Source: an uncultured Candidatus Saccharibacteria bacterium
GTDB taxonomy: Bacteria > Patescibacteriota > Minisyncoccia > Phycocordibacterales > UBA9973
Length of the DNA: 43,110 nt
NCBI GenBank assembly: GCA_964638985.1
Contig: CAZXCD010000002.1
Span: 379-43,488, forward strand
Reading direction: 5' to 3'
The notes under the pieces were generated by a model. That model was not told the DNA's origin. It ran no database searches and saw only the letters and a program-made list of their open reading frames with translations. A program made the translations under genes and the position numbers. Positions within the stretch are counted from its first letter, which is position 1. Each line of letters starts with the position of its first letter. Of this stretch, positions 5,562 through 42,492 are shown in pieces.

Positions 5562-6497
5562 ATGGAAAAAGATACGAACGAAATAGAAAATGAAATAGAA
5601 AAGCTTGAAGAGGAGATGCAGGCCCCTAACTTTTGGAACGATAAAAATAAAGCGCAGAATGTTTTAAAAGAACTAGCAGATTTAAAAAATAAAAAAGAAG
5701 GAACGAATAAATACGACAGGGGTAATGCTATTGTGACAATCATTTCCGGCGCTGGCGGGGAAGATGCGGAAGACTTCGGCGCGATGCTCTTCTCTATGTA
5801 TGTGAAATATGCGGACAAAATGGGCTTCAACGTTTTTTTAATTCACGAAAACAAAAATAACAGCGGGGGATACAGAAATGTTTCTTTTGAGATAACAGAC
5901 CCCACCCTACACCCTCCCCTTCGCAGGGGAGGGCACGGGGAGAGGTTAGGCCCGTATGGCATGCTCAAAAAAGAATCCGGGGTGCACAGGCTCGTGCGCA
6001 TTTCTCCATTTGATGCGAAAAAACTGCGTCACACGTCCTTCGCGCTCGTGGAAGTTTTGCCTAAATTTTCAAAACTAGAAGAAAAAGATTTTGTAATTCC
6101 ACCAGCAGATTTGAAGATAGAATTTTCCCGTTCGGGCGGTCCCGGAGGGCAGAATGTGAATAAAAGAGAAACGGCAGTAAGGATAGTCCACATACCCTCG
6201 GGCATAGCGGTGCATTCTTCCGAAGAACGGTCGCAAGAGAATAATCGCGAACGGGCGATGGCTATTTTGCGAGCAAAAATTTTCAAAAAAGCGGAAGAAG
6301 AGAAGAAAAGTGTGGAAGAAATATTCAAACAAAAGTCTACGGAGATAGAATGGGGAAATCAAATTCGTTCGTACGTGCTCCATCCGTACAAAATGGTAAA
6401 AGATCATAGGACTGATGCCGAGACATCGGATGTGGATGGAGTGCTGGATGGGAATCTAGACTTGTTCATAGAGGCGGAGAAAGATTTATTTACCTAG
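5562..6497 (+). CDS. prfB: Peptide chain release factor 2 (compact form, no programmed frameshift)
   Basis: SPF tripeptide (RISPFD), GGQ motif (SGGPGGQNVNK), GVHRLVR and WGNQIRSYV. I moved the start to ATG 5562, because the track start at 5526 lies inside the tRNA. The ORF is continuous, so no +1 frameshift site is needed. Confidence 0.9.
   Translation: MEKDTNEIENEIEKLEEEMQAPNFWNDKNKAQNVLKELADLKNKKEGTNKYDRGNAIVTIISGAGGEDAEDFGAMLFSMYVKYADKMGFNVFLIHENKNNSGGYRNVSFEITDPTLHPPLRRGGHGERLGPYGMLKKESGVHRLVRISPFDAKKLRHTSFALVEVLPKFSKLEEKDFVIPPADLKIEFSRSGGPGGQNVNKRETAVRIVHIPSGIAVHSSEERSQENNRERAMAILRAKIFKKAEEEKKSVEEIFKQKSTEIEWGNQIRSYVLHPYKMVKDHRTDAETSDVDGVLDGNLDLFIEAEKDLFT
5900..5933 (+). repeat. CPE copy, in frame inside prfB
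   Basis: ccccaccctaca followed by ccctcccct-tcgc-aggggaggg. It encodes DPTLHPPLRRGGHGERL, which has no counterpart in canonical RF2 between the ..EI and GxYGxLK..GVHRLVR segments. Confidence 0.7.
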
Positions 6498-7181
6498 GGT
6501 TCCCCTCGGGGATGGGGGTTCGAGAAATTCGGGAAGTTCTGCGCTAAAATCATCCACAATATTATTATAATTACAGATATTTTTTTCTCTGATAGGGAAT
6601 GGTTTTGCGTTTATTATTTTATAATTTTTAGATAAATATTCTTGCAGGCTGGAGTATGGATATTCAGCAATAAATTTTTTAAGTTGAGTCAAAAAGCTTT
6701 TTGGCTGTGTTTTCCACTTAGATTTTTTTAATTTTGCAGGGTTTAGGTGTATGTATGCGTAAATATATTTAAGGTATACATCTTCATCTATATGTTGCGA
6801 TTTAAAAACCCCTTGAAAAAGAGTTCCAACTCGATCAGTTTTTTTATTAAAGTACATTGAATACCCAGTCTGAAGCTTAAGCATAAATTTTGAAATACCT
6901 CCGTTCACAAGGGGAGTCAGTAGTAGATGAAAATGATTTGGCATTAAGCAATATGCACCAATTGCGACCAATGGTTCACCCCGATCTTTTTGGAATATTT
7001 CTTCTATTGAGTTAATTACTCCATAGTCTCTGAAGTGCAGTGGTTGATTGCTATTTGCGATATAAAGCAACATCAAGAATCTCTTGTAATCGGTAGAGTT
7101 CTGAAAAATAATCCTTTTTTCAACTCCTCGATTATATGCATGATAGAATTCTCCAATTTCAAATTTTATTTTTCTTTCCAT
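6486..7181 (-). CDS. IS200/IS605-like Y1 (HUH) transposase, REP-associated (RayT-type), copy 1
   Basis: HUH motif LMPNHFHLLL and catalytic Tyr motif YAYIHLNPAK. It is flanked by REP1 hairpins on both sides. Confidence 0.85.
   Translation of the reverse strand: MERKIKFEIGEFYHAYNRGVEKRIIFQNSTDYKRFLMLLYIANSNQPLHFRDYGVINSIEEIFQKDRGEPLVAIGAYCLMPNHFHLLLTPLVNGGISKFMLKLQTGYSMYFNKKTDRVGTLFQGVFKSQHIDEDVYLKYIYAYIHLNPAKLKKSKWKTQPKSFLTQLKKFIAEYPYSSLQEYLSKNYKIINAKPFPIREKNICNYNNIVDDFSAELPEFLEPPSPRGTLGK
6494..6511. repeat. REP1 hairpin (ctaggg/ccctag type) at the 3' end of RayT-1
   Basis: ctagggttcccctcgggg. It encodes the C-terminal ...PSPRGTLGK. Confidence 0.7.
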
Positions 7182-12479: not shown

Positions 12480-13190
12480 TTAATACCTGAGCGAGGGTAG
12501 TCCTCGCTCAATTTCAATCAATGGTTTATTTAGCTGAAAGACTTTTTCTTGTGTTTTAAAATCTAATTTCATATCTTTTATATATTCTGGGATTTTAGAA
12601 AAATCTAGAATTACTGATTCTGGTCTATTTATAGATAAAAAATCTTGATAACTAGAGAATTGATATTTTTTTAGGAATTCTTCTGTTTCTTTTCTGTTTT
12701 TTATCCCATTTTCTTTCCATTTTTTATCAATAATTGAAATTGGATTGAGGTGTACATAAGAAAAGATATACACGTACTGCGACTCGTTGCTTATGTGCTC
12801 AGATTTAAAGGGGTGTGTGAATAGCGGACCGCTTCGCTCGTATTTTGTGTTGAAATACATTGAATATGCAGTCAAAAGTTTGCCCATAAATTTGCTTATT
12901 CCACCTTCACTGCCTTCATATAAAATTAAATGAAAATGATTTGGCATGAGGCAATATCCTAAAATAGAGACAAGAGTTCCTTCTCTTTTTTCCATGAATA
13001 TGTCTTCTAAACTTTTATTTTTATCGCGGAGAAAGTTTCCCATTGTAAATGGTGCGTCTTGGTTCATAATATACAAAAGAGCCACAAAGCGATTGTAGTC
13101 TTTTGTGTTCATGAATATTTTGCGTTTTTCTACTCCACGAGAGTAAACATGATAATGTTCACCAACGGCAAGGGATGTTTTTCTATACAT
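12480..13190 (-). CDS. IS200/IS605-like Y1 (HUH) transposase, REP-associated (RayT-type), copy 2
   Basis: LMPNHFHLIL and YVHLNPIS motifs. It is flanked by REP2 copies. Confidence 0.85.
   Translation of the reverse strand: MYRKTSLAVGEHYHVYSRGVEKRKIFMNTKDYNRFVALLYIMNQDAPFTMGNFLRDKNKSLEDIFMEKREGTLVSILGYCLMPNHFHLILYEGSEGGISKFMGKLLTAYSMYFNTKYERSGPLFTHPFKSEHISNESQYVYIFSYVHLNPISIIDKKWKENGIKNRKETEEFLKKYQFSSYQDFLSINRPESVILDFSKIPEYIKDMKLDFKTQEKVFQLNKPLIEIERGLPSLRY
12488..12510 (+). repeat. REP2 hairpin at the 3' end of RayT-2
   Basis: Identical tgagcgagggtagtcctcgctca. It encodes the C-terminal ..IERGLPSLRY. Confidence 0.8.
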
Positions 13191-33724: not shown

Positions 33725-34432
33725 ATGGGATACAGAAAGGCACCGCTTGTGCGGGGTGAGTTTTATCATATCTATAATCGTGGTAATAGCCGACAGCAGA
33801 TATTTTTCAATGACGACGATTATCGTCATTTTGTTAAACTGCTCTATCTTTGCAATTCAGTTAAAAAAATTAATTTTCGTGAAGACATAGTTGAGAAAAA
33901 AATTGATGCTTGGGATTTTGATAGAGAAGAAACGATAGTTTCAATTGGGGCTTGGGTTTTGATGCCGAACCATTTTCATATTTATATTACTTTCCCAAAA
34001 GACGGTCTTTTGGGTGAAAATAATATCTCTGTTTTTATGCGTAAACTTTGTACCGCCTATTCAAAATATATTAATGCAAAATATAAACGCACTGGTTCAC
34101 TTTTTGAGGGCAGATTTAGGTCTGTTCGCGTGTCTAATGAAGTACAAGCAAAATATCTTTTTTCATATATTCACTTGAATCCGGTAAAATTATTTCAAAA
34201 AAGTTGGAAAGAAGAGGGAATACATGATAAAAATAAAGCGATTTCGTTTCTTGATAAATATAGATGGAGTAGTTATCAAGATCATATGCTAGTAAATAGA
34301 CTAGAAAATAAGATATTAGACAGAGACAATTTTCTTGATTATTTTTCCGATAGAAAAGATTTTCAAAAAGAAATTTTTGAGTGGTTTGAAGGATCTGATG
34401 AAGTTTCCCAAAAGACGGTCTTTTGGGAATAA
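33725..34432 (+). CDS. IS200/IS605-like Y1 (HUH) transposase, REP-associated (RayT-type), copy 3
   Basis: LMPNHFHIYI and YIHLNPVK motifs. It is flanked by REP3 and also contains a REP3 copy. Confidence 0.85.
   Translation: MGYRKAPLVRGEFYHIYNRGNSRQQIFFNDDDYRHFVKLLYLCNSVKKINFREDIVEKKIDAWDFDREETIVSIGAWVLMPNHFHIYITFPKDGLLGENNISVFMRKLCTAYSKYINAKYKRTGSLFEGRFRSVRVSNEVQAKYLFSYIHLNPVKLFQKSWKEEGIHDKNKAISFLDKYRWSSYQDHMLVNRLENKILDRDNFLDYFSDRKDFQKEIFEWFEGSDEVSQKTVFWE
33994..34014. repeat. REP3 hairpin inside the RayT-3 CDS (in frame)
   Basis: cccaaaagacggtcttttggg encodes FPKDGLLG immediately after the HUH motif. The two paralogs are about 5 aa shorter at this point. Confidence 0.75.
34407..34427. repeat. 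REP3 hairpin at the 3' end of RayT-3
   Basis: cccaaaagacggtcttttggg encodes the C-terminal SQKTVFWE. Confidence 0.8.
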
Positions 34433-35158: not shown

Positions 35159-35174
35159 CTTGATAAAATATACT

Positions 35175-35567
35175 ATGGATAAAAATATAAAAATTTTCGT
35201 TTCTATAATAATTCTTTTAGTTTTAGGGACAATTACCACTGTAGTAATGAGGATGGATAGCACTGTACCGGTCGGATCGGGTAAATATGACGCTTTTGCA
35301 ACTTGTCTAAAAGACGAAGGGGCGGTATTTTACGGCGCTTTCTGGTGTGTGCATTGCCAGGCTACAAAGAAATTATTCGGCGCGTCACAAAAATTATTGC
35401 CTTATGTTGAATGTTCCACTGCTGATGGCAGAGGTCAGGTGCAAATGTGCGCAGATAAAAAAATAACCAGTTATCCCACCTGGGAATTTGCCGACGGTTC
35501 AAGGCTTGCAGGAGAAGTCACTTTGGAACAGCTAGCCGAGAAAACTTCTTGTCAGTTGCCTCTATAA
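35175..35567 (+). CDS. Membrane-anchored thioredoxin-like thiol-disulfide oxidoreductase
   Basis: CxxC active site in YGAFWCVHCQATKKLFG, as in the VKOR-associated Trx-like domain. It has an N-terminal TM helix. I chose ATG 35175 as the start. Confidence 0.75.
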   Translation: MDKNIKIFVSIIILLVLGTITTVVMRMDSTVPVGSGKYDAFATCLKDEGAVFYGAFWCVHCQATKKLFGASQKLLPYVECSTADGRGQVQMCADKKITSYPTWEFADGSRLAGEVTLEQLAEKTSCQLPL

Positions 35568-35576
35568 GTTGCATAT

Positions 35577-36131
35577 ATGAATTTGAACACTCTTTACTAT
35601 TTGAATGTATTTCTCGGTTCGGGGGCTATAGTCCTCCAAATTCTTTCAGTGGTCGCGCTAATTCTCCTTTTCTTTATACCCAAAGAAAAAAACAAGAATT
35701 TCTATTTAGACTTTATTGATAAGCATTTCTTGGTATTGAGCTTTTTGATTTCTCTTTTCGCCTCGGTCTTCCCTCTGGTGTATTCCGAAGTCGCGAACTT
35801 CCTTCCGTGTTATCTGTGTTGGTGGCAAAGAATATTTATGTTTCCACTTGTGCTAATGTTCGGAGTTGCTCTGTGGGATAAGGACAGAAGGGTTATTCGT
35901 TATGTGATGCCGCTATTGTGTGTCGGTTTTCTATTGTCTATTTATCAGAACTTTTTCTATTACTTCGGCCCAAATTCAAATTTACCCTGTGATGCTTCGG
36001 GTGTGTCTTGTTATCAACATCTGGTTTCTGTATTCAGCGGATATATTTCAATCCCGATGCTGGCGCTTACGGCCTTCTTCTCGCTTCTAACCCTATTATC
36101 GGTTGCTCATTTCTACAAAAAAGAGATATAA
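35577..36131 (+). CDS. dsbB: Disulfide bond formation protein B (DsbB/BdbC family)
   Basis: LPCYLCWWQRIFMFP carries the CxxC-xx-QR motif. A second Cys pair lies in the later loop. Four TM helices. Confidence 0.8.
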   Translation: MNLNTLYYLNVFLGSGAIVLQILSVVALILLFFIPKEKNKNFYLDFIDKHFLVLSFLISLFASVFPLVYSEVANFLPCYLCWWQRIFMFPLVLMFGVALWDKDRRVIRYVMPLLCVGFLLSIYQNFFYYFGPNSNLPCDASGVSCYQHLVSVFSGYISIPMLALTAFFSLLTLLSVAHFYKKEI

Positions 36132-36283: not shown

Positions 36284-36895
36284 ATGTTTCGGTTTACAAA
36301 AAAAGAAGAATCACTGCTGAAAAAATTAAACACTCCGGCCAAGGCGCAGGATTTTTTGAATGCTCTTCGGTTTAATTTTGAAGAGAAGGGAGAGACCTTG
36401 AAGTCTCCGCTTTTCACTCTCAGGGCAAAGAATGCACATTGTCTGGAAGGGGCTCTGCTCGGGGCTTATATCTTGTCTCTGCACGGCTTTACCCCGTATG
36501 TGATGCACCTGAAGGCTATTAGAGAAGACTATGACCATGTGATCGCCCCATTTAAGGTTGGGGGGCTCTGGGGCGCGCTTTCTAAGACTAACCACGCAGT
36601 TCTGCGTTATCGTGAGCCTGTTTATAAGAATATCCACGAGCTCGTGATGTCATACTTTCACGAATATTTTTTAGACAACGGAGTAAAGACTCTCCGGAAA
36701 TATTCTGGACTCCTTAATTTAAATACTTTTGAACAAGGTTGGGAAAGGGAAGACGGCAACCTGTGGGGGATAGATGAAGAACTGGACAAGATAAAGCACT
36801 ACGATATCCTACCTAGGGGAACCCTAGGGAAACTTCGCAAAGCGGACAAGGTTGAAATTCGGGCGGGAAAAATCGTGGAATTTAAAAGACGTTGA
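36284..36895 (+). CDS. Hypothetical protein, possibly transglutaminase/cysteine-peptidase-like
   Basis: 203-aa ORF. NAHCLEGALLGAYIL...DYDHVIAPF suggests a Cys-His dyad. This is weak. Confidence 0.35.
   Translation: MFRFTKKEESLLKKLNTPAKAQDFLNALRFNFEEKGETLKSPLFTLRAKNAHCLEGALLGAYILSLHGFTPYVMHLKAIREDYDHVIAPFKVGGLWGALSKTNHAVLRYREPVYKNIHELVMSYFHEYFLDNGVKTLRKYSGLLNLNTFEQGWEREDGNLWGIDEELDKIKHYDILPRGTLGKLRKADKVEIRAGKIVEFKRR
36812..36830. repeat. REP1 hairpin, in frame inside the CDS
   Basis: cctaggggaaccctaggga encodes LPRGTLGK, the same peptide as the RayT-1 C-terminus. Confidence 0.7.
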
Positions 36896-38834
36896 AAAAT
36901 TTAAGAAGAGCGAAAAGAAGAGCGATGCTGGAAACGATTCCGAGAAATAGGGGAATGTTTTGAGGGATGTTGGAATTTGTAGATTGCAAGGCGTTCACGG
37001 CTGTGGCGGCAAGTAAGCCGGACGTTGTTTCTGATGTCTCTGTGATCGTCGGTTGACTGGTGGCTATCGGTTTTTTGATTTTAGGAACCGGAGTTTCTAT
37101 TCTAAGGACAGGAGAAACTTCAACAATTGCGGGATTTATTTGAGCATCAAGCGAAACTGTCTCTGGGGTTTCCGTATCCGTGGTGGGGGTGGTTTCTTCG
37201 TCTGTGTCTTTGGTGGAATGCCTACTAGAACCACTGTCGTCCTTCGGTTTAGAAAATGATTTCATAATGTCGTTCCAAGTTTTTCCCAAGCCCGCGGGTA
37301 TGGCGTAGCTGGTAGCCCATATCGTGTTTTCTAAAGTTTCCGAAGGGGGAAGCATGGCGCCGTCATTGTCTGCGTTTGTTTGTTGTTCTGCCAGGTAATC
37401 AATCCCGCTTTTGCCGTTTTTTGTCCATGATGCATTAAGCGCGTTTTCTGCTTGCATGGCCCAACTTGTGGCGGAAATGTTCCCCCAACCACCATCGCTG
37501 TTTTGAGAAGTCTCAAGGTAAGTTGTAGCTTTAAGAAGAGCTTCGGAAACACCCGCAACTGAATCAAAGGAGTTAAGCGCTTGAATTGCCGCAGCTGTGA
37601 CGTCCACACTATCTTCCCATGAACCATTGCCTTGTTGTTGTGAAATTATAAAAGCTACGGTCTTAATAATAGTGTCATCATCTTCAGTATAGCCGGTCTT
37701 GGCAAGTGGAATTAGGGCGAAGATGTCGTCATTTACCAAATCAACATCGCCGAATTGGGTGCCGTCAAACTCTTTAATAATGGCTTCAATATAATTTACT
37801 TCTTCCCAAGCATAAGGATTTTTCCCGAGTGAGAGCAAGGCCATCGCTCTTCGTTCATTGTCGGTGAGAAGTGAACTGATTGAATTGTTGGAACTGAGAT
37901 ACGCAAGAATGGAGTCGCGAGAACTGTCGGTCACTTTCCCCGCGCCGTATGCGATGGCCACCCAATCTGTGTACATATCAGAATCGCCGAAAGATCCGTC
38001 CGCACTCTGTACGCTTTTTAAATAATTAATCGCATCTGTGGCGCTGAATTCAGGTTCCGGGGTGGAACTTCCACCGCCTCCTCCTCCACCAGAAGGCGGG
38101 GGTGTCGTTACTGTAAGAGGTTTCGTAGGAAAGTAATATCCGAAATTATCTCTGATTCCCACATCATATAATCCGACAGGTATGGATGTGAAAGTAGCTT
38201 GTCCGATCGTATCAGTCAGGCTCGTCATTATTTCTATGGGTGGATTGAAGGAACTTGCCGGATCGGGCTGTGTAACTCCAAGCGTGATGTCGGTTGCCGG
38301 GGTCCAGGTGTTATCTTCAAAACTATATTTTTCTGCCGTCACCAGGAGAGAGTCGCTTGTAGTCATCGTGTCCGCGCTTAAGGTGATTCTATTTTGTGGA
38401 CTGAAATAAACATATACAGTTTCTCCGCCAATTAGAATCTCTTTGTCCATACCTTTACTCGGTGTTTCGCCGTTTACCGCATATTGCCAGTCATAACAAT
38501 CATTACCCACGGAACTGGTTATACAGTTCAGAAGGAAACTCCCGAAAGATTCAAAATATTGCAAGTCAGAAATGTTCCAATTTTCATCACCCAAATCCGC
38601 CTTGTTTAAAGTTGAAAGCACACTTCGGGCGTCCAGGGTGTGTCCATTTATCTCTGTGGTTCCGGTGGGTAAAAGCTCCACCAAACTATCAAAGAAAACA
38701 GTTGCCCCGCTTCTGATTTTTAAATTTATGGTTATCGGTGTTATTTCACCTTCTGCAAAAACAGTATTTATATAAAAACTACCCAAAAATAAAACCGCGA
38801 CAAACACAAAACTCATTTTTAATATTTTTTTCAT
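36882..38834 (-). CDS. Surface-anchored protein: signal peptide, DUF4430-like domain, prenyltransferase/terpene-cyclase-like alpha/alpha-toroid repeats, C-terminal TM
   Basis: I chose the start at MKKILKMSFVFVAVLFLGSFYINTVFA (38834). NGHTLDARSVLSTL...WQYAVNGE...GGETVYVYF follows the DUF4430 pattern. Repeated DGSFG / GNGSWED / SDGGWGN units match the toroid repeat pattern. There is a Thr/Pro-rich stalk and a terminal hydrophobic helix. Confidence 0.75.
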   Translation of the reverse strand: MKKILKMSFVFVAVLFLGSFYINTVFAEGEITPITINLKIRSGATVFFDSLVELLPTGTTEINGHTLDARSVLSTLNKADLGDENWNISDLQYFESFGSFLLNCITSSVGNDCYDWQYAVNGETPSKGMDKEILIGGETVYVYFSPQNRITLSADTMTTSDSLLVTAEKYSFEDNTWTPATDITLGVTQPDPASSFNPPIEIMTSLTDTIGQATFTSIPVGLYDVGIRDNFGYYFPTKPLTVTTPPPSGGGGGGGSSTPEPEFSATDAINYLKSVQSADGSFGDSDMYTDWVAIAYGAGKVTDSSRDSILAYLSSNNSISSLLTDNERRAMALLSLGKNPYAWEEVNYIEAIIKEFDGTQFGDVDLVNDDIFALIPLAKTGYTEDDDTIIKTVAFIISQQQGNGSWEDSVDVTAAAIQALNSFDSVAGVSEALLKATTYLETSQNSDGGWGNISATSWAMQAENALNASWTKNGKSGIDYLAEQQTNADNDGAMLPPSETLENTIWATSYAIPAGLGKTWNDIMKSFSKPKDDSGSSRHSTKDTDEETTPTTDTETPETVSLDAQINPAIVEVSPVLRIETPVPKIKKPIATSQPTITETSETTSGLLAATAVNALQSTNSNIPQNIPLFLGIVSSIALLFALLKFFNVF

Positions 38835-38838
38835 AAAA

Positions 38839-39333
38839 TTATTCCAATTTCCACTCAAGAATGTCCCCATCCTTAAGCACGTAAGAAGAAACGCCGACAG
38901 TCGCTTCTTTACCGTTAATATAATAAAGCAAGTCTTTCCCATCCCCAGAATGAAGCGCGCCGATATCGGTTAGAAAGAATCCCAAACCGGGATATTTTTT
39001 CCCAGAAAAAGTAATGCCGCCGGAATTTTTCGCTTTCATTAACGCGTCATAAAAGGTGGTACTTGCGGGGACGGATAGAGTTATTTTTTCTTCTCCGAAC
39101 ATGACAGTCACATTTTCTGTATTTTGGGCAAGAAGAGGTTTTAGGGTCGGTTTCGTTTCTTTTATTACCCTCTCTGCCTCCGGCACCTCCCCTTTAACAA
39201 GGGGGAGGTTGGGTGGGGGTGCTATAATGGTAATTTTTTGGGGGGATAAAAATATAAATATAAAAAAAGCTATAAAAGCAAGAATTAATCCAATTGTTAA
39301 AATTATTTTTTTGTTTTTCATAAATTTTGACAT
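38839..39333 (-). CDS. Membrane-anchored DUF4430-like protein
   Basis: TM helix, then TTFYDALMKAKNSGGITFSGKKYPGLGFFLTDIG...LLYYINGKEATVGVSSYVLKDGDILEW (DUF4430 pattern). It ends 4 nt upstream of the next gene. The start is ambiguous (39333 or 39321). Confidence 0.7.
   Translation of the reverse strand: MSKFMKNKKIILTIGLILAFIAFFIFIFLSPQKITIIAPPPNLPLVKGEVPEAERVIKETKPTLKPLLAQNTENVTVMFGEEKITLSVPASTTFYDALMKAKNSGGITFSGKKYPGLGFFLTDIGALHSGDGKDLLYYINGKEATVGVSSYVLKDGDILEWKLE
39186..39221 (-). repeat. CPE copy, in frame inside the DUF4430 CDS
   Basis: The reverse complement reads cacccccacccaa followed by cctccccctt-gtta-aaggggagg. It encodes APPPNLPLVKGEVPE. Confidence 0.65.
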
Positions 39334-39410
39334 AAAAAAATCCTGCCGAATAAATTTTGAGCAGAATTTGGGGTCCAAAAAACCAAGGACTTATCCTGCT
39401 CGGGACACAC

Positions 39411-39504
39411 AAAATGATTGGTAGTCGGGCTTGTCTCCGAACTTTCGTCGGAGCTTACCGTAGCGGCACTGCACTGGAATCTAACCAGTTTCCCCAAATC
39501 ATTT
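39411..39504 (-). promoter_or_regulatory. Cobalamin riboswitch-like aptamer (compact)
   Basis: The minus strand reads aaaugauuugGGGGAAacUGGuuagauuCCAgUGCAGugCCGCUACGGUAAGCuccgacGAAAguucGGAGACAAGCCCgacuaCCAAUCAUUUu. A P1 helix closes the element. The core and a B12-box-like segment match the consensus as I recall it. Confidence 0.6.
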
Positions 39505-39531
39505 CTTATATTTTTAAAAAGGAACTCACTT

Positions 39532-39559
39532 AGTATATACTTACCTTATACGATGTCAA
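39532..39559 (-). promoter_or_regulatory. Sigma70-type promoter for the riboswitch/DUF4430 operon
   Basis: Minus strand: TTGACA (39559-39554), then N16, then TATACT (39537-39532). Confidence 0.6.
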
Positions 39560-41331: not shown

Positions 41332-42492
41332 CTAGATATCACTCTTTTTTATTGTGCTTGATAGATAGACCCCATAAAACATCAAAGTTCCCAGGATGAG
41401 AAAAATAAAATTAAAAGACGGGGTCAGCAGGAATACAATAAAAGCGGTGATTGGCGCGAGGACATAAGATGTCGGACCGGCGTTTCTGTATACGCTGACA
41501 AATTCATCTTTTTCCTTATCAATATGTTTGAAAAAGTAGACATCACTCATCACTTCTATGGTGGCGGCCCCGACTCTCGTGAGAAAGAGCGCCAGAGCCC
41601 ATATCCATACTTCGTGTTTGTCTATGAAGAAGAGCGCCAGAGTGGCGGTGGCAGCAACGAAAAATCCAATCATAAGCATTTTCCTTTCGCCAATTTTGTC
41701 CGAATACCGGCCGAGAGGAAACTGAATAAAAACAAAAGGGAGAAGCATGACGGTGAAAATCGCGCCGATTTCCTTCCAGTCAAATCCCAAATGCGCGAAT
41801 AAATAAATCGGCGTATAGATGACCATCCAAGCATAGAAAAACTGCAGAAGGAAATTTATCTTATAAGAACGAGCGAGATTTTTGTTGGTAAAAAAATTTT
41901 TAAATGATTGCCAAGCGAAGGTTTTGTCATATTTCGGATCCCTCAAACTTTCTAAGCTCAACAGTGTAGTTAAGAAGAAAACACTCATAATTATAAAACC
42001 GACTACATAAATAGTGGAGAAAGAAAATTCCGCCAGTGTCCTGCCGGAGAAAAATTGCGCTATCACCCAGGCCAAGTTGACGAAAGTCAGATACAGTCCG
42101 CGCACTTTTCCCGTGGAAGAGTTTCTAGAAAATATCTCCAACATTTCATCAAGCGCAAAGATGAGTATGTTGTTGAGAGTAAAATAAAAAATAAAAATAA
42201 AGATAATTTGAGCGGGAGTTTTCAAAACAGACAAAAAGAGAAGGGAAAGGGCGTTTAACCCCGAGGACCAAAGGAGGAATTTGTATCCTCCCATTTTCCG
42301 AAGCATTAAAGGGACAAAGAAAAGCGCGGAGATGGAAGCGAGAGAACCCAACATATATATCAAGCCGACATATTTCTCGCCGGAAGAGAGGGAGAGGAAA
42401 CTGGAATTGACATAAGAAGTAAAGGCCAGATGCAGAGATATCAAAAAACCCATCAAGAAGATATTTTTTAATTTTGGATTATCTTTAAACAT
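41332..42492 (-). CDS. MFS transporter
   Basis: 386 aa with about 12 TM helices. A GRYSDKIGERK loop motif (DRxGRR-like) lies between TM8 and TM9. Confidence 0.75.
   Translation of the reverse strand: MFKDNPKLKNIFLMGFLISLHLAFTSYVNSSFLSLSSGEKYVGLIYMLGSLASISALFFVPLMLRKMGGYKFLLWSSGLNALSLLFLSVLKTPAQIIFIFIFYFTLNNILIFALDEMLEIFSRNSSTGKVRGLYLTFVNLAWVIAQFFSGRTLAEFSFSTIYVVGFIIMSVFFLTTLLSLESLRDPKYDKTFAWQSFKNFFTNKNLARSYKINFLLQFFYAWMVIYTPIYLFAHLGFDWKEIGAIFTVMLLPFVFIQFPLGRYSDKIGERKMLMIGFFVAATATLALFFIDKHEVWIWALALFLTRVGAATIEVMSDVYFFKHIDKEKDEFVSVYRNAGPTSYVLAPITAFIVFLLTPSFNFIFLILGTLMFYGVYLSSTIKKSDI

Follow-up and report, generated by a model that had tools for sequence, protein, structure and literature searches.

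The 43,110-nt stretch of contig CAZXCD010000002.1 that was analysed here over its whole length (the window, G+C content 39.7%) carries on its minus strand an RNA leader followed directly by two genes, which are referred to as ORF1 and ORF2 (for open reading frame). ORF1 encodes a small membrane-anchored protein with a DUF4430 (SLBB) domain, and ORF2 encodes a larger protein in which an SLBB-like domain is combined with an alpha/alpha toroid. The locus is probably to be read as a class-II-type cobalamin riboswitch that serves to turn OFF an operon of two genes encoding surface-located, transcobalamin-like corrinoid-binding proteins in Patescibacteria (Minisyncoccota), i.e., bacteria of the candidate phyla radiation (CPR). 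The coordinates of all features are compiled in Table 1.

The Cobalamin model of Rfam (RF00174) matches the leader at positions 39543-39411 of the minus strand with 38.3 bits (gathering score 31.5), and the E-value of this match is 2.5e-6 for the whole 43-kb window searched with all 4227 Rfam families and 2.4e-8 for the local region. A first-pass annotation of this DNA, made from the letters of the sequence, had recognized a cobalamin-riboswitch-like core here and proposed the search with the Rfam models, and its expectation was borne out. For the comparison with related loci, 80 stretches (L001-L080) were fetched from the 311 stretches of GTDB representatives (one genome per species) that encode a relative of ORF2; two of these are cut off upstream and the other 78 could be tested for the riboswitch. 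Using Rfam at the gathering scores (36.5 for RF01689 and 50 for RF01482), a riboswitch of the cobalamin clan (CL00101) was detected in 12 of 15 loci, located 500-1200 nt upstream of the ORF2 homolog and on the same strand. Nine of these 12 scored best as RF01689 (AdoCbl-II), the scores of the relatives being 37-57 bits for RF01689, 53.3 bits for RF01482, and 36.6-38.9 bits for RF00174. A covariance model (R1) was in addition constructed from 20 relatives with a structure specified by us. It yielded exactly one match in the window (75.6 bits, E-value 1e-16) and exactly one copy, upstream and on the same strand, in 67 of the 78 testable loci (86%), all of them from Patescibacteria, which disposes of the earlier concern that homologous operons might never carry this leader.

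Pair counts were taken from a covariance-model-based alignment of 68 sequences, which is fitted to the model and hence leans towards the modelled structure; a MAFFT alignment in which the 5' strand was shifted by one column between two subgroups was not used for this purpose, and compensatory changes also stand out clearly in a plain MAFFT alignment. The covariation that the first-pass annotation had suggested looking for in homologous loci was found: 24 of the 34 modelled pairs show compensatory changes (P1/P3 11 of 11, P4 two of four, P5 two of two, and the P6 extension six of six), and the three core P6 pairs are invariant. In P5 the A-U pair is replaced by U-A in 12 sequences and the G-C pair by A-U in one. 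Standard pairing holds in 93.1% of the cells as compared to 76.3% in shuffled alignments, none of the 500 shuffles reached any of the observed measures, and pairing fell to 30-48% when the 3' partners were slid by ±1-3 columns. The closing helix that had been read from the sequence (39504-39494 with 39421-39412) is real and corresponds to P1/P3, all 11 pairs of which show compensatory changes. The P1 placed by the RF00174 alignment at 39531-39520 was rejected, since it contains many non-canonical pairs and it is the former helix that covaries. We are all but certain that the RNA in the window is a real riboswitch of the cobalamin family.

Other details of the first reading were only partly retained. 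The 'B12 box' that had been assigned to AGUUCGGAGAC falls for the most part into the unconserved 3' strand of a variable hairpin that extends P6, and no more than AAG(U/C)CCG of it is conserved; the conserved J6/3 segment reads AAG(U/C)CCGA, and the hairpin on P6 differs in every relative and is wholly absent in L020 and L025. The 3' boundary had been set too early, as the functional element reaches beyond the closing helix to P13/L13 and the terminator (Table 1). In the RF00174 alignment the window has 3 nt in place of 62 model positions of the class-I P6 periphery, which makes the aptamer a short one of the class-II kind, and the large peripheral extension on P6 (P7-P11) by which class-I members accommodate the adenosyl group is absent from the window. 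The sigma-70-like promoter that had been noted upstream is present and is the best promoter site between positions 36500 and 40100. That scan found nine promoter-like sites as compared to 6.5±2.7 in shuffled sequences, so the match is not significant by itself; an identical promoter was seen upstream in the relatives L001, L006, and L017. Some relatives depart from the compact layout. An extra hairpin occurs in the P4/L4 region of 12 loci (L005, L032, L042, L051, L058, L059, L064, L069, L072, L073, L076, and L079), and a hairpin of 30-40 nt is inserted into the J1/13 linker of L034, L039, L049, L061, and L078, which is unexpected because published regulation is sensitive to the length of this linker. 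A short R1 match in L056 (E-value 0.05) may be a decayed remnant of the riboswitch.

Downstream of the aptamer the sequence UCC-CGAGCA-GGA begins six nt after P1, and across the relatives its core, CCGAGCAGGA, is near-invariant and lies a short distance 3' of P1. The P13 stem formed by its ends covaries (UUC/GAA in L011 and L077, U·G in L010 and L032). This region resembles what we take to be the P13/L13 sequence of env8HyCbl, CGAGCA(A)GGA. The numbering of env8HyCbl in PMC5028336 fits that sequence. Cobalamin riboswitches signal through a kissing loop between L5 and L13 that always contains at least one unpaired nucleotide, and L13 needs to sit on a hairpin, with ~7 nt being the best length for the J1/13 linker (PMC5028336). 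The L5 loop of the window, UGCCG, corresponds to the published L5 consensus UCCCG (PMC10653944). For the window we propose the pairs U39468-A39397, G39467-C39398, C39466-G39399, C39465-G39401, and G39464-C39402 with A39400 bulged. These positions are pairable in 98.5% of the cells and never vary among the 68 sequences, which leaves the register a proposal, and the five pairs with one bulged A fit the published rule of at least one unpaired nucleotide (PMC5028336). A kissing interaction of L5 with the terminator loop, which in the window offers a perfect CGGCA, was discarded because CGG(CA) occurs in only about one third of the relatives, whereas the loop on P13, CGAGCA, never changes and sits in the right place.

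The minimum-free-energy fold of the expression platform is an antiterminator (-18.9 kcal/mol) in which GAGCAGGAU pairs with AUUCUGCUC. Blocking of P13/L13 gives a terminator of -13.9 kcal/mol instead, and P13 alone amounts to -2.9 kcal/mol. The 3' arm of the terminator contains an AGGA Shine-Dalgarno sequence (39344-39341) and the ATG of ORF1 follows directly after the U-run, so that transcription and translation would both be shut off. Most of the 66 relatives analysed have a corresponding hairpin, followed by 5-8 U, immediately 5' of ORF1. Terminator and antiterminator recur in the relatives in two sequence versions, AUUCUGC...GCAGGAU or CUCCU-CGGA-AGGAG, both of which are complementary to the same invariant element, and when the match of the terminator's 5' arm to the L13/P13 element is compared with shuffled sequences, the mean z over the relatives is -2.3.

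A described transcriptional example, in which the kissing loop stabilizes a weak P13 whose 3' side otherwise pairs with the 5' arm of the terminator as an antiterminator (PMC10653944), provides the layout for the mechanism that we propose. At low intracellular corrinoid the 3-bp P13 would fail to hold, and its 3' half together with L13 would engage in the antiterminator, so that the operon would be transcribed and translated. With a corrinoid bound in the P3-P6 junction, L5 would dock on L13 and lock P13; AUUCUGC would then be free to pair with GCAGGAU, and the hairpin with its U7 would terminate transcription one base before the start codon of ORF1 and would also hide the AGGA ribosome-binding site. 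It is highly probable that the riboswitch is an OFF switch operating through this terminator and sequestrator, with the OFF logic, like the kissing-loop register, being what we infer from sequence and folding.

ORF1 matches the DUF4430 family (PF14478) with 37 bits (Pfam cut-off 23.8) and begins with a transmembrane helix, in agreement with the membrane-anchored DUF4430-like protein expected from the first reading. Its AlphaFold2 (AF2) model has a predicted local distance difference test (pLDDT) of 82, and the ten best PDB matches retrieved with Foldseek are all transcobalamin, with its beta domain as the aligned part. When this domain is taken by itself (5np4, 5no0) the model gives TM-scores of 0.79-0.80 with a root-mean-square deviation of 1.8 Å and 25% identity; a bacterial DUF4430 structure (3u7z), haptocorrin, and intrinsic factor rank next, followed by generic ubiquitin-like folds. 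Sequence searches gave weak matches to the transcobalamin beta domain (E-value 0.06) and, by profile, to intrinsic factor (E-value 0.04). The InterPro name for DUF4430 is 'transcobalamin-like C-terminal domain'. Homologs of ORF1 numbered 89, all with PF14478, and every named one is from CPR bacteria.

ORF2 starts 4 nt after the stop codon of ORF1. Its working reference (36882-38837) contains one extra N-terminal codon, and residue numbers of the AF2 model (pLDDT 79.9) are accordingly higher by one. In this numbering a signal peptide is followed by an SLBB-like domain (~35-146), an immunoglobulin (Ig)-like beta-sandwich (~149-245), a Gly linker, a 12-helix alpha/alpha toroid (~265-525), a disordered stalk of ~100 aa rich in Thr, Pro, and Glu, and a transmembrane helix (631-650). 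The signal peptide, toroid, and C-terminal anchor that had been recognized in this 650-aa protein are thus seen in the Pfam and AF2 results; the DUF4430-like domain reaches 22.0 bits as a partial match. Two Cys of the SLBB-like domain, C104 and C113 (650-aa numbering), are invariant. ORF2 matches SQHop_cyclase_C with 41.8 bits (cut-off 26.1), and searches of PDB with the single sequence and with a profile retrieved only terpene cyclases, through the repeat motif (QW-like, DGGWG). A function as squalene-hopene or other class-II terpene cyclase (PF13243) was rejected, since the catalytic DVDDTA (DxDD) aligns to SVDVTA and the protein, which has a signal peptide, is extracytoplasmic. As read from the sequence the toroid is free of Cys, so a CGEQ-type thioester as in TED domains is not possible. 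Among 25 ORF2 homologs DUF4430 was matched by ten at E-values of at most 0.01 and the Cobalamin_bind family (PF01122) was matched weakly by seven (best E-value 8e-6), and a profile comparison of ORF1 with the N-terminal domain of ORF2 gave a low-probability match over 28 residues of the C-terminal motif only. ORF2 homologs numbered 368 at E-values of at most 1e-5 among the candidates scored. The named homologs of ORF1 and ORF2 are all from Patescibacteria/CPR (Nomurabacteria, Paceibacterota, and Minisyncoccia), and the two genes stay together in almost every one of the 66 loci with a riboswitch that were inspected.

Table 1. Features of the operon leader, the operon and its surroundings, and riboswitches at other loci mentioned in the text.
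Feature	Position	Strand	Details
Sigma-70-like promoter	39559-39532	-	TTGACA 39559-39554, 16-nt spacer, TATACT 39537-39532; consensus matched at 11 of 12 positions
Cobalamin riboswitch aptamer, class-II type	39504-39412	-	P1/P3, J3/4 GGGGAA, P4/L4, P5/L5, P6 with variable extension hairpin, J6/3 AAGCCCGA
L5 loop UGCCG	39468-39464	-	Closed by P5 (A39470-G39469 with C39463-U39462); loop invariant in 68 sequences
P13 stem and L13 loop	39405-39394	-	UCC 39405-39403 with GGA 39396-39394; loop CGAGCA 39402-39397
Predicted antiterminator	39401-39359	-	GAGCAGGAU 39401-39393 with AUUCUGCUC 39367-39359, enclosing a small hairpin
Predicted terminator/sequestrator	39367-39334	-	AUUCUGC 39367-39361, GCAGGAU 39346-39340, U7 39340-39334
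ORF1, 164 aa	39333-38839	-	N-terminal transmembrane helix 4-28, Pro-rich linker, SLBB/DUF4430 domain 72-164
ORF2, 650 aa	38834-36882	-	ATG at 38834
203-aa conserved protein	36284-36895	+	No Pfam match
Thioredoxin-like and DsbB genes	35160-36131	+	
MFS transporter gene	41332-42492		
Neighbours of the operon in the window (Pfam)			Cytidylyltransferase-like, DUF559, MFS transporter, 203-aa protein, DsbB, thioredoxin-like, diacylglycerol kinase
IS200/Y1-transposase-like protein	6486-7181	-	Judged by sequence resemblance
IS200/Y1-transposase-like protein	12480-13190	-	Judged by sequence resemblance
IS200/Y1-transposase-like protein	33725-34432	+	Matches Pfam Y1_Tnp
Possible riboswitch remnant, L056	3142-3199		
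Riboswitch before zinc-ribbon protein, L081	6137-6271	-	
Riboswitch before zinc-ribbon protein, L125	3352-3512	+	
Riboswitch before zinc-ribbon protein, L137	8310-8405	-	
Riboswitch before zinc-ribbon protein, L089	3057-3149	+	
Riboswitch before zinc-ribbon protein, L115	7018-7116	-	
Riboswitch before acidic protein, L123	9387-9515	-	
Riboswitch before acidic protein, L139	3176-3295	-	
Riboswitch before acidic protein, L153	1949-2075	+	

The genomic context of the operon was examined in the window and, downstream of ORF2, in five related loci. The genes downstream of ORF2 in these five loci (ArsR regulators, NDH-2, methyltransferases, GreA, DNA polymerase III delta', RRF, thioredoxin/DsbB, PilB, and others) were considered as the missing transporter; they are of the housekeeping type, and none is related to B12. 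The gene for a major facilitator superfamily (MFS) protein in the window was dismissed as a linked importer, as it is syntenic in only the 21 closest loci, is separated from the promoter by a divergent gene, and lies outside the control of the riboswitch. Type IV pilin, FtsEX, and RNase J are among the other window genes as read from the translations. The thioredoxin-like and DsbB genes that adjoin the operon in the window lie directly 3' of ORF2 in L045, L055, L065, L066, L070, and L075, and this location beside the operon in both sublineages together with the two invariant Cys of ORF2 suggests a dedicated disulfide-forming pair. The gene of the 203-aa protein converges on ORF2, overlaps its 3' end by 14 nt, and is syntenic in 24 related loci. 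Three paralogous proteins of ~230 aa resembling IS200/Y1 transposases (REP-associated tyrosine transposase-like) are encoded elsewhere in the window.

The riboswitch itself and the fold of ORF1 are the strongest evidence that the pair handles corrinoids. The first-pass annotation had envisaged a riboswitch-controlled corrinoid scavenger at the cell surface, and this is supported by the covariance-model match, the leader in 67 of the 78 loci, the covariation, and the ORF1 fold, with corrinoid binding as a prediction. By analogy with transcobalamin we think it fairly likely that both proteins bind a corrinoid at the surface of the cell. As judged from the predicted helices, ORF1 would be tethered to the outside of the membrane through its N-terminal helix, and ORF2 through its C-terminal helix on a long flexible stalk. 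The corrinoid would be sandwiched between the toroid of ORF2 and a beta-grasp SLBB domain, either that of ORF2 itself or that of ORF1, and would then be handed to an importer encoded elsewhere; the binding, the SLBB partner of the toroid, and the hand-over step are proposed parts of this scheme.

A number of observations weigh against this reading of the locus. Both genes are kept without a riboswitch, as searched with Rfam or R1 within 4 kb upstream, in 11 of the 78 loci (L024, L027, L029, L033, L035, L036, L041, L044, L053, L056, and L057). The pairs of the kissing loop are invariant, so covariation neither supports nor refutes their register. No linked importer was found in the window or downstream of ORF2 in the five related loci scanned, as had been noted earlier for the adjacent genes, nor was an enzyme that depends on B12 identified in the window. 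For ORF2, the N-terminal match to DUF4430 falls just under the cut-off, PF01122 was not matched in the window protein at E-values of at most 0.1, and a predicted template modelling score (pTM) of 0.49 leaves the geometry between its domains undefined. In Foldseek searches the ORF2 model did retrieve transcobalamin and intrinsic factor, as the first-pass annotation had hoped (E-values 2e-6 to 8e-6), but the MG+TED modules of complement and alpha-2-macroglobulin and squalene-hopene cyclase scored equally well or better (E-values ~1e-7); the toroid is at least as similar to complement TED and squalene-hopene cyclase as to transcobalamin, and as far as the model allows its likeness to transcobalamin is generic. 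Finally, the order SLBB, Ig-like, toroid in ORF2 is the reverse of that in transcobalamin (toroid, beta domain), with an Ig-like domain inserted.

The ligand could in principle be another one, in that the proteins capture heme or an incomplete corrinoid (cobinamide) and not complete B12, while the riboswitch reports a related pool. We regard this as unlikely. A split pair of this kind in Lactobacillus sakei, Lsa1839/Lsa1840, is encoded in an energy-coupling factor (ECF) operon and was genetically linked to heme uptake (bioRxiv 10.1101/864751), which also counts against corrinoid binding by our proteins, but that ligand assignment rests on docking and the heme content of whole cells and not on binding assays. 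The prediction of Burroughs et al. extended to 'B12 or its precursors' (PMC1796856), and corrinoid riboswitches can respond to several corrinoids (PMC10653944). For the operon described here, however, a cobalamin-clan riboswitch precedes the genes in 86% of the testable loci, which ties their expression to corrinoids specifically, and no heme-related gene is linked to it.

CPR bacteria are commonly episymbionts, and the absence of an adjacent transporter in the loci examined would also agree with proteins that bind B12 without feeding an importer, for sequestration or storage at the surface in competition with neighbours or host, or with proteins that are mainly host adhesins and for which B12 serves only as a regulatory cue. 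An Ig-like domain and a long stalk as in ORF2 are commonly met in surface adhesins, and the MG+TED modules of complement and alpha-2-macroglobulin are among the structures that match ORF2 best. Such a role seems quite unlikely to us, as uptake genes are classically repressed by their ligand, the fold of ORF1 matches specifically the B12-contacting beta domain of transcobalamin, and the Cys-free toroid cannot form the thioester of TED domains.

That the riboswitch is purely translational or an ON switch, with the hairpin and U-run being a Shine-Dalgarno sequestrator or incidental, appears very improbable, for although the AGGA lies within the 3' arm of the hairpin, the closest characterized class-II aptamer, env8HyCbl, is translational (PMC5028336), and a corrinoid riboswitch that activates is known (PMC10653944), the stem runs into U7 in the window and into U-runs of 5-8 in relatives, the start codon of many relatives lies 10-30 nt past the U-run so that Shine-Dalgarno masking cannot be the only effect, and P13 and the terminator are compatible and not mutually exclusive, which is the repressing layout of PMC10653944.

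The interpretation of the locus as an OFF-switched operon for corrinoid-binding surface proteins can be carried further, to a self-contained 'split transcobalamin' of ultra-small episymbionts in which ORF1 closes over a corrinoid held in the ORF2 toroid, strips B12 from host or neighbours, and delivers it without known importers; this we consider doubtful.

Related riboswitches were also looked for in metagenomes, where a scan with the 16-mer ACAGTGCCGCTACGGT returned 120 loci, the first 100 of which were searched with R1. The model confirmed the riboswitch in 62 of these 100, and most of the confirmed loci with enough downstream DNA carry homologs of ORF1 and ORF2, including single-chain fusions. 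Single-chain proteins of 511-647 aa that match both ORF1 and ORF2 stand behind a related riboswitch in the higher-GC contigs L101, L177, L187, and L199 (riboswitch G+C up to 0.66), and the fused architecture therefore probably occurs also outside the low-GC CPR lineages. Three further kinds of genes were seen behind related riboswitches. The first are uncharacterized proteins of 285-506 aa without a Pfam match that end in a CxxC...CxxC zinc ribbon (Table 1), among which kinship is detectable only between L081 and L125 (zinc ribbon alone) and between L115 and L191. The second is a long, acidic protein of low complexity with the C-terminus ..NGITL(K/R)(I/R)AA, followed by an AAA+ ATPase, which in L123 is clearly ClpB-like (AAA_2 and ClpB_D2-small) and is an odd target for a B12 switch. 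These zinc-ribbon and acidic/ClpB-like targets could be missing parts of the B12 economy of CPR bacteria. The third are Opp/Nik-type ATP-binding cassette importers in L132, L142, L155, and L178 (riboswitch scores 45-57 bits), represented in L132 by SBP_bac_5 and a BPD_transp_1 permease, which may be transporters for cobalt/nickel or corrinoids.

CPR bacteria have very small genomes and presumably live at the expense of other cells. A putative surface corrinoid binder under riboswitch control with relatives in 311 GTDB representatives points to B12 as an actively scavenged nutrient, and R1, which describes a compact riboswitch of ~120 nt, provides a means of charting the genes under B12 control in CPR genomes, among them the uncharacterized ones that it has already picked out. 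The operon is also relevant to the bacterial origin that has been proposed for animal transcobalamin.

The riboswitch compares most closely with the class-II riboswitches (RF01689 AdoCbl-II, formerly AdoCbl-variant; prototype env8HyCbl, PDB 4FRN), which are likewise short and without the peripheral extension on P6. The signatures of J3/4, L4, P5/P6, and J6/3 (UCCGAAUGCCA-like), a J1/13 linker of ~6-7 nt, and a P13/L13 element of related sequence are shared. Unlike the class-II relatives that score best on RF01689, the window scores best on RF00174, and its L5 consists of the 5 nt UGCCG. Its modelled kissing loop has five Watson-Crick pairs and one bulged A, whereas that of env8 has an A·G pair and two bulged purines (PMC5028336). 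The proposed read-out is a terminator and not masking of the ribosome-binding site only as in the class-II prototype, and many members have a hairpin extending P6 or inserts in L4 or J1/13. With regard to the expression platform, the corrinoid riboswitch of Priestia megaterium metE (PMC10653944) is similar to the mechanism proposed here in that L5-L13 kissing stabilizes a weak P13 and in that a structured spacer lies between P13 and the terminator. It differs by its class-I aptamer, its L5 (UCCCG) with a contiguous 5-bp kissing loop, its phylum, and the gene controlled.

With regard to the proteins, Burroughs, Balaji, Iyer, and Aravind predicted in 2007 (PMC1796856) that bacterial surface proteins combining SLBB (=DUF4430) domains with alpha/alpha toroids serve as scavengers of B12 or its precursors. 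They reported fusions of SLBB and toroid in both orders, additional Ig-like domains, and operons that often contain a second SLBB paralog. ORF1 and ORF2 agree with that description in the SLBB domain N-terminal to the toroid (as in their Bacillus example), the secretion signals and anchors, the Ig-like domains, the paralogous SLBB partner within the operon, and the occurrence in organisms without B12 synthesis. The operons of that survey usually contain genes of the CbiO/CbiQ (ECF) type, none of which is linked here; the survey predates CPR genomes and does not mention riboswitch control. In the lsa1836-1840 operon of L. sakei (bioRxiv 10.1101/864751) beta-grasp and toroid are also supplied by two exported proteins, the beta-like Lsa1839 and the alpha-like Lsa1840, but a complete ECF importer is encoded, no riboswitch was reported, and the toroid protein has neither an additional SLBB domain nor an Ig-like one.

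Transcobalamin, intrinsic factor, and haptocorrin (PF01122) are built from the same two folds as the operon products, ORF1 superposing on the beta domain at 1.8 Å and the ORF2 toroid retrieving transcobalamin and intrinsic factor. Compared with these eukaryotic carriers the folds are split over two membrane-anchored proteins and lack the context of receptor-mediated endocytosis. Functional analogues are found in BtuG and BtuH of Bacteroides, which are surface-exposed, riboswitch-controlled lipoproteins that capture corrinoids and feed an importer; they differ in having beta-propeller folds, in the outer membrane with TonB, and in the linkage of their genes to btuB.

Literature on such proteins, on cobalamin riboswitches, or on B12-dependent ribonucleotide reductase in CPR/Patescibacteria was not found. 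The novelty claimed in the first-pass annotation was nevertheless overstated, since scavengers of this type were predicted by Burroughs et al. in 2007 (PMC1796856) and the split pair of L. sakei has been studied genetically. With the principle predicted at that time the gain is incremental, and what is particular to the present case is the operation without a linked importer, the CPR host, the tight linkage of the operon to a riboswitch, and the distinct, invariant sequence of the kissing loop.

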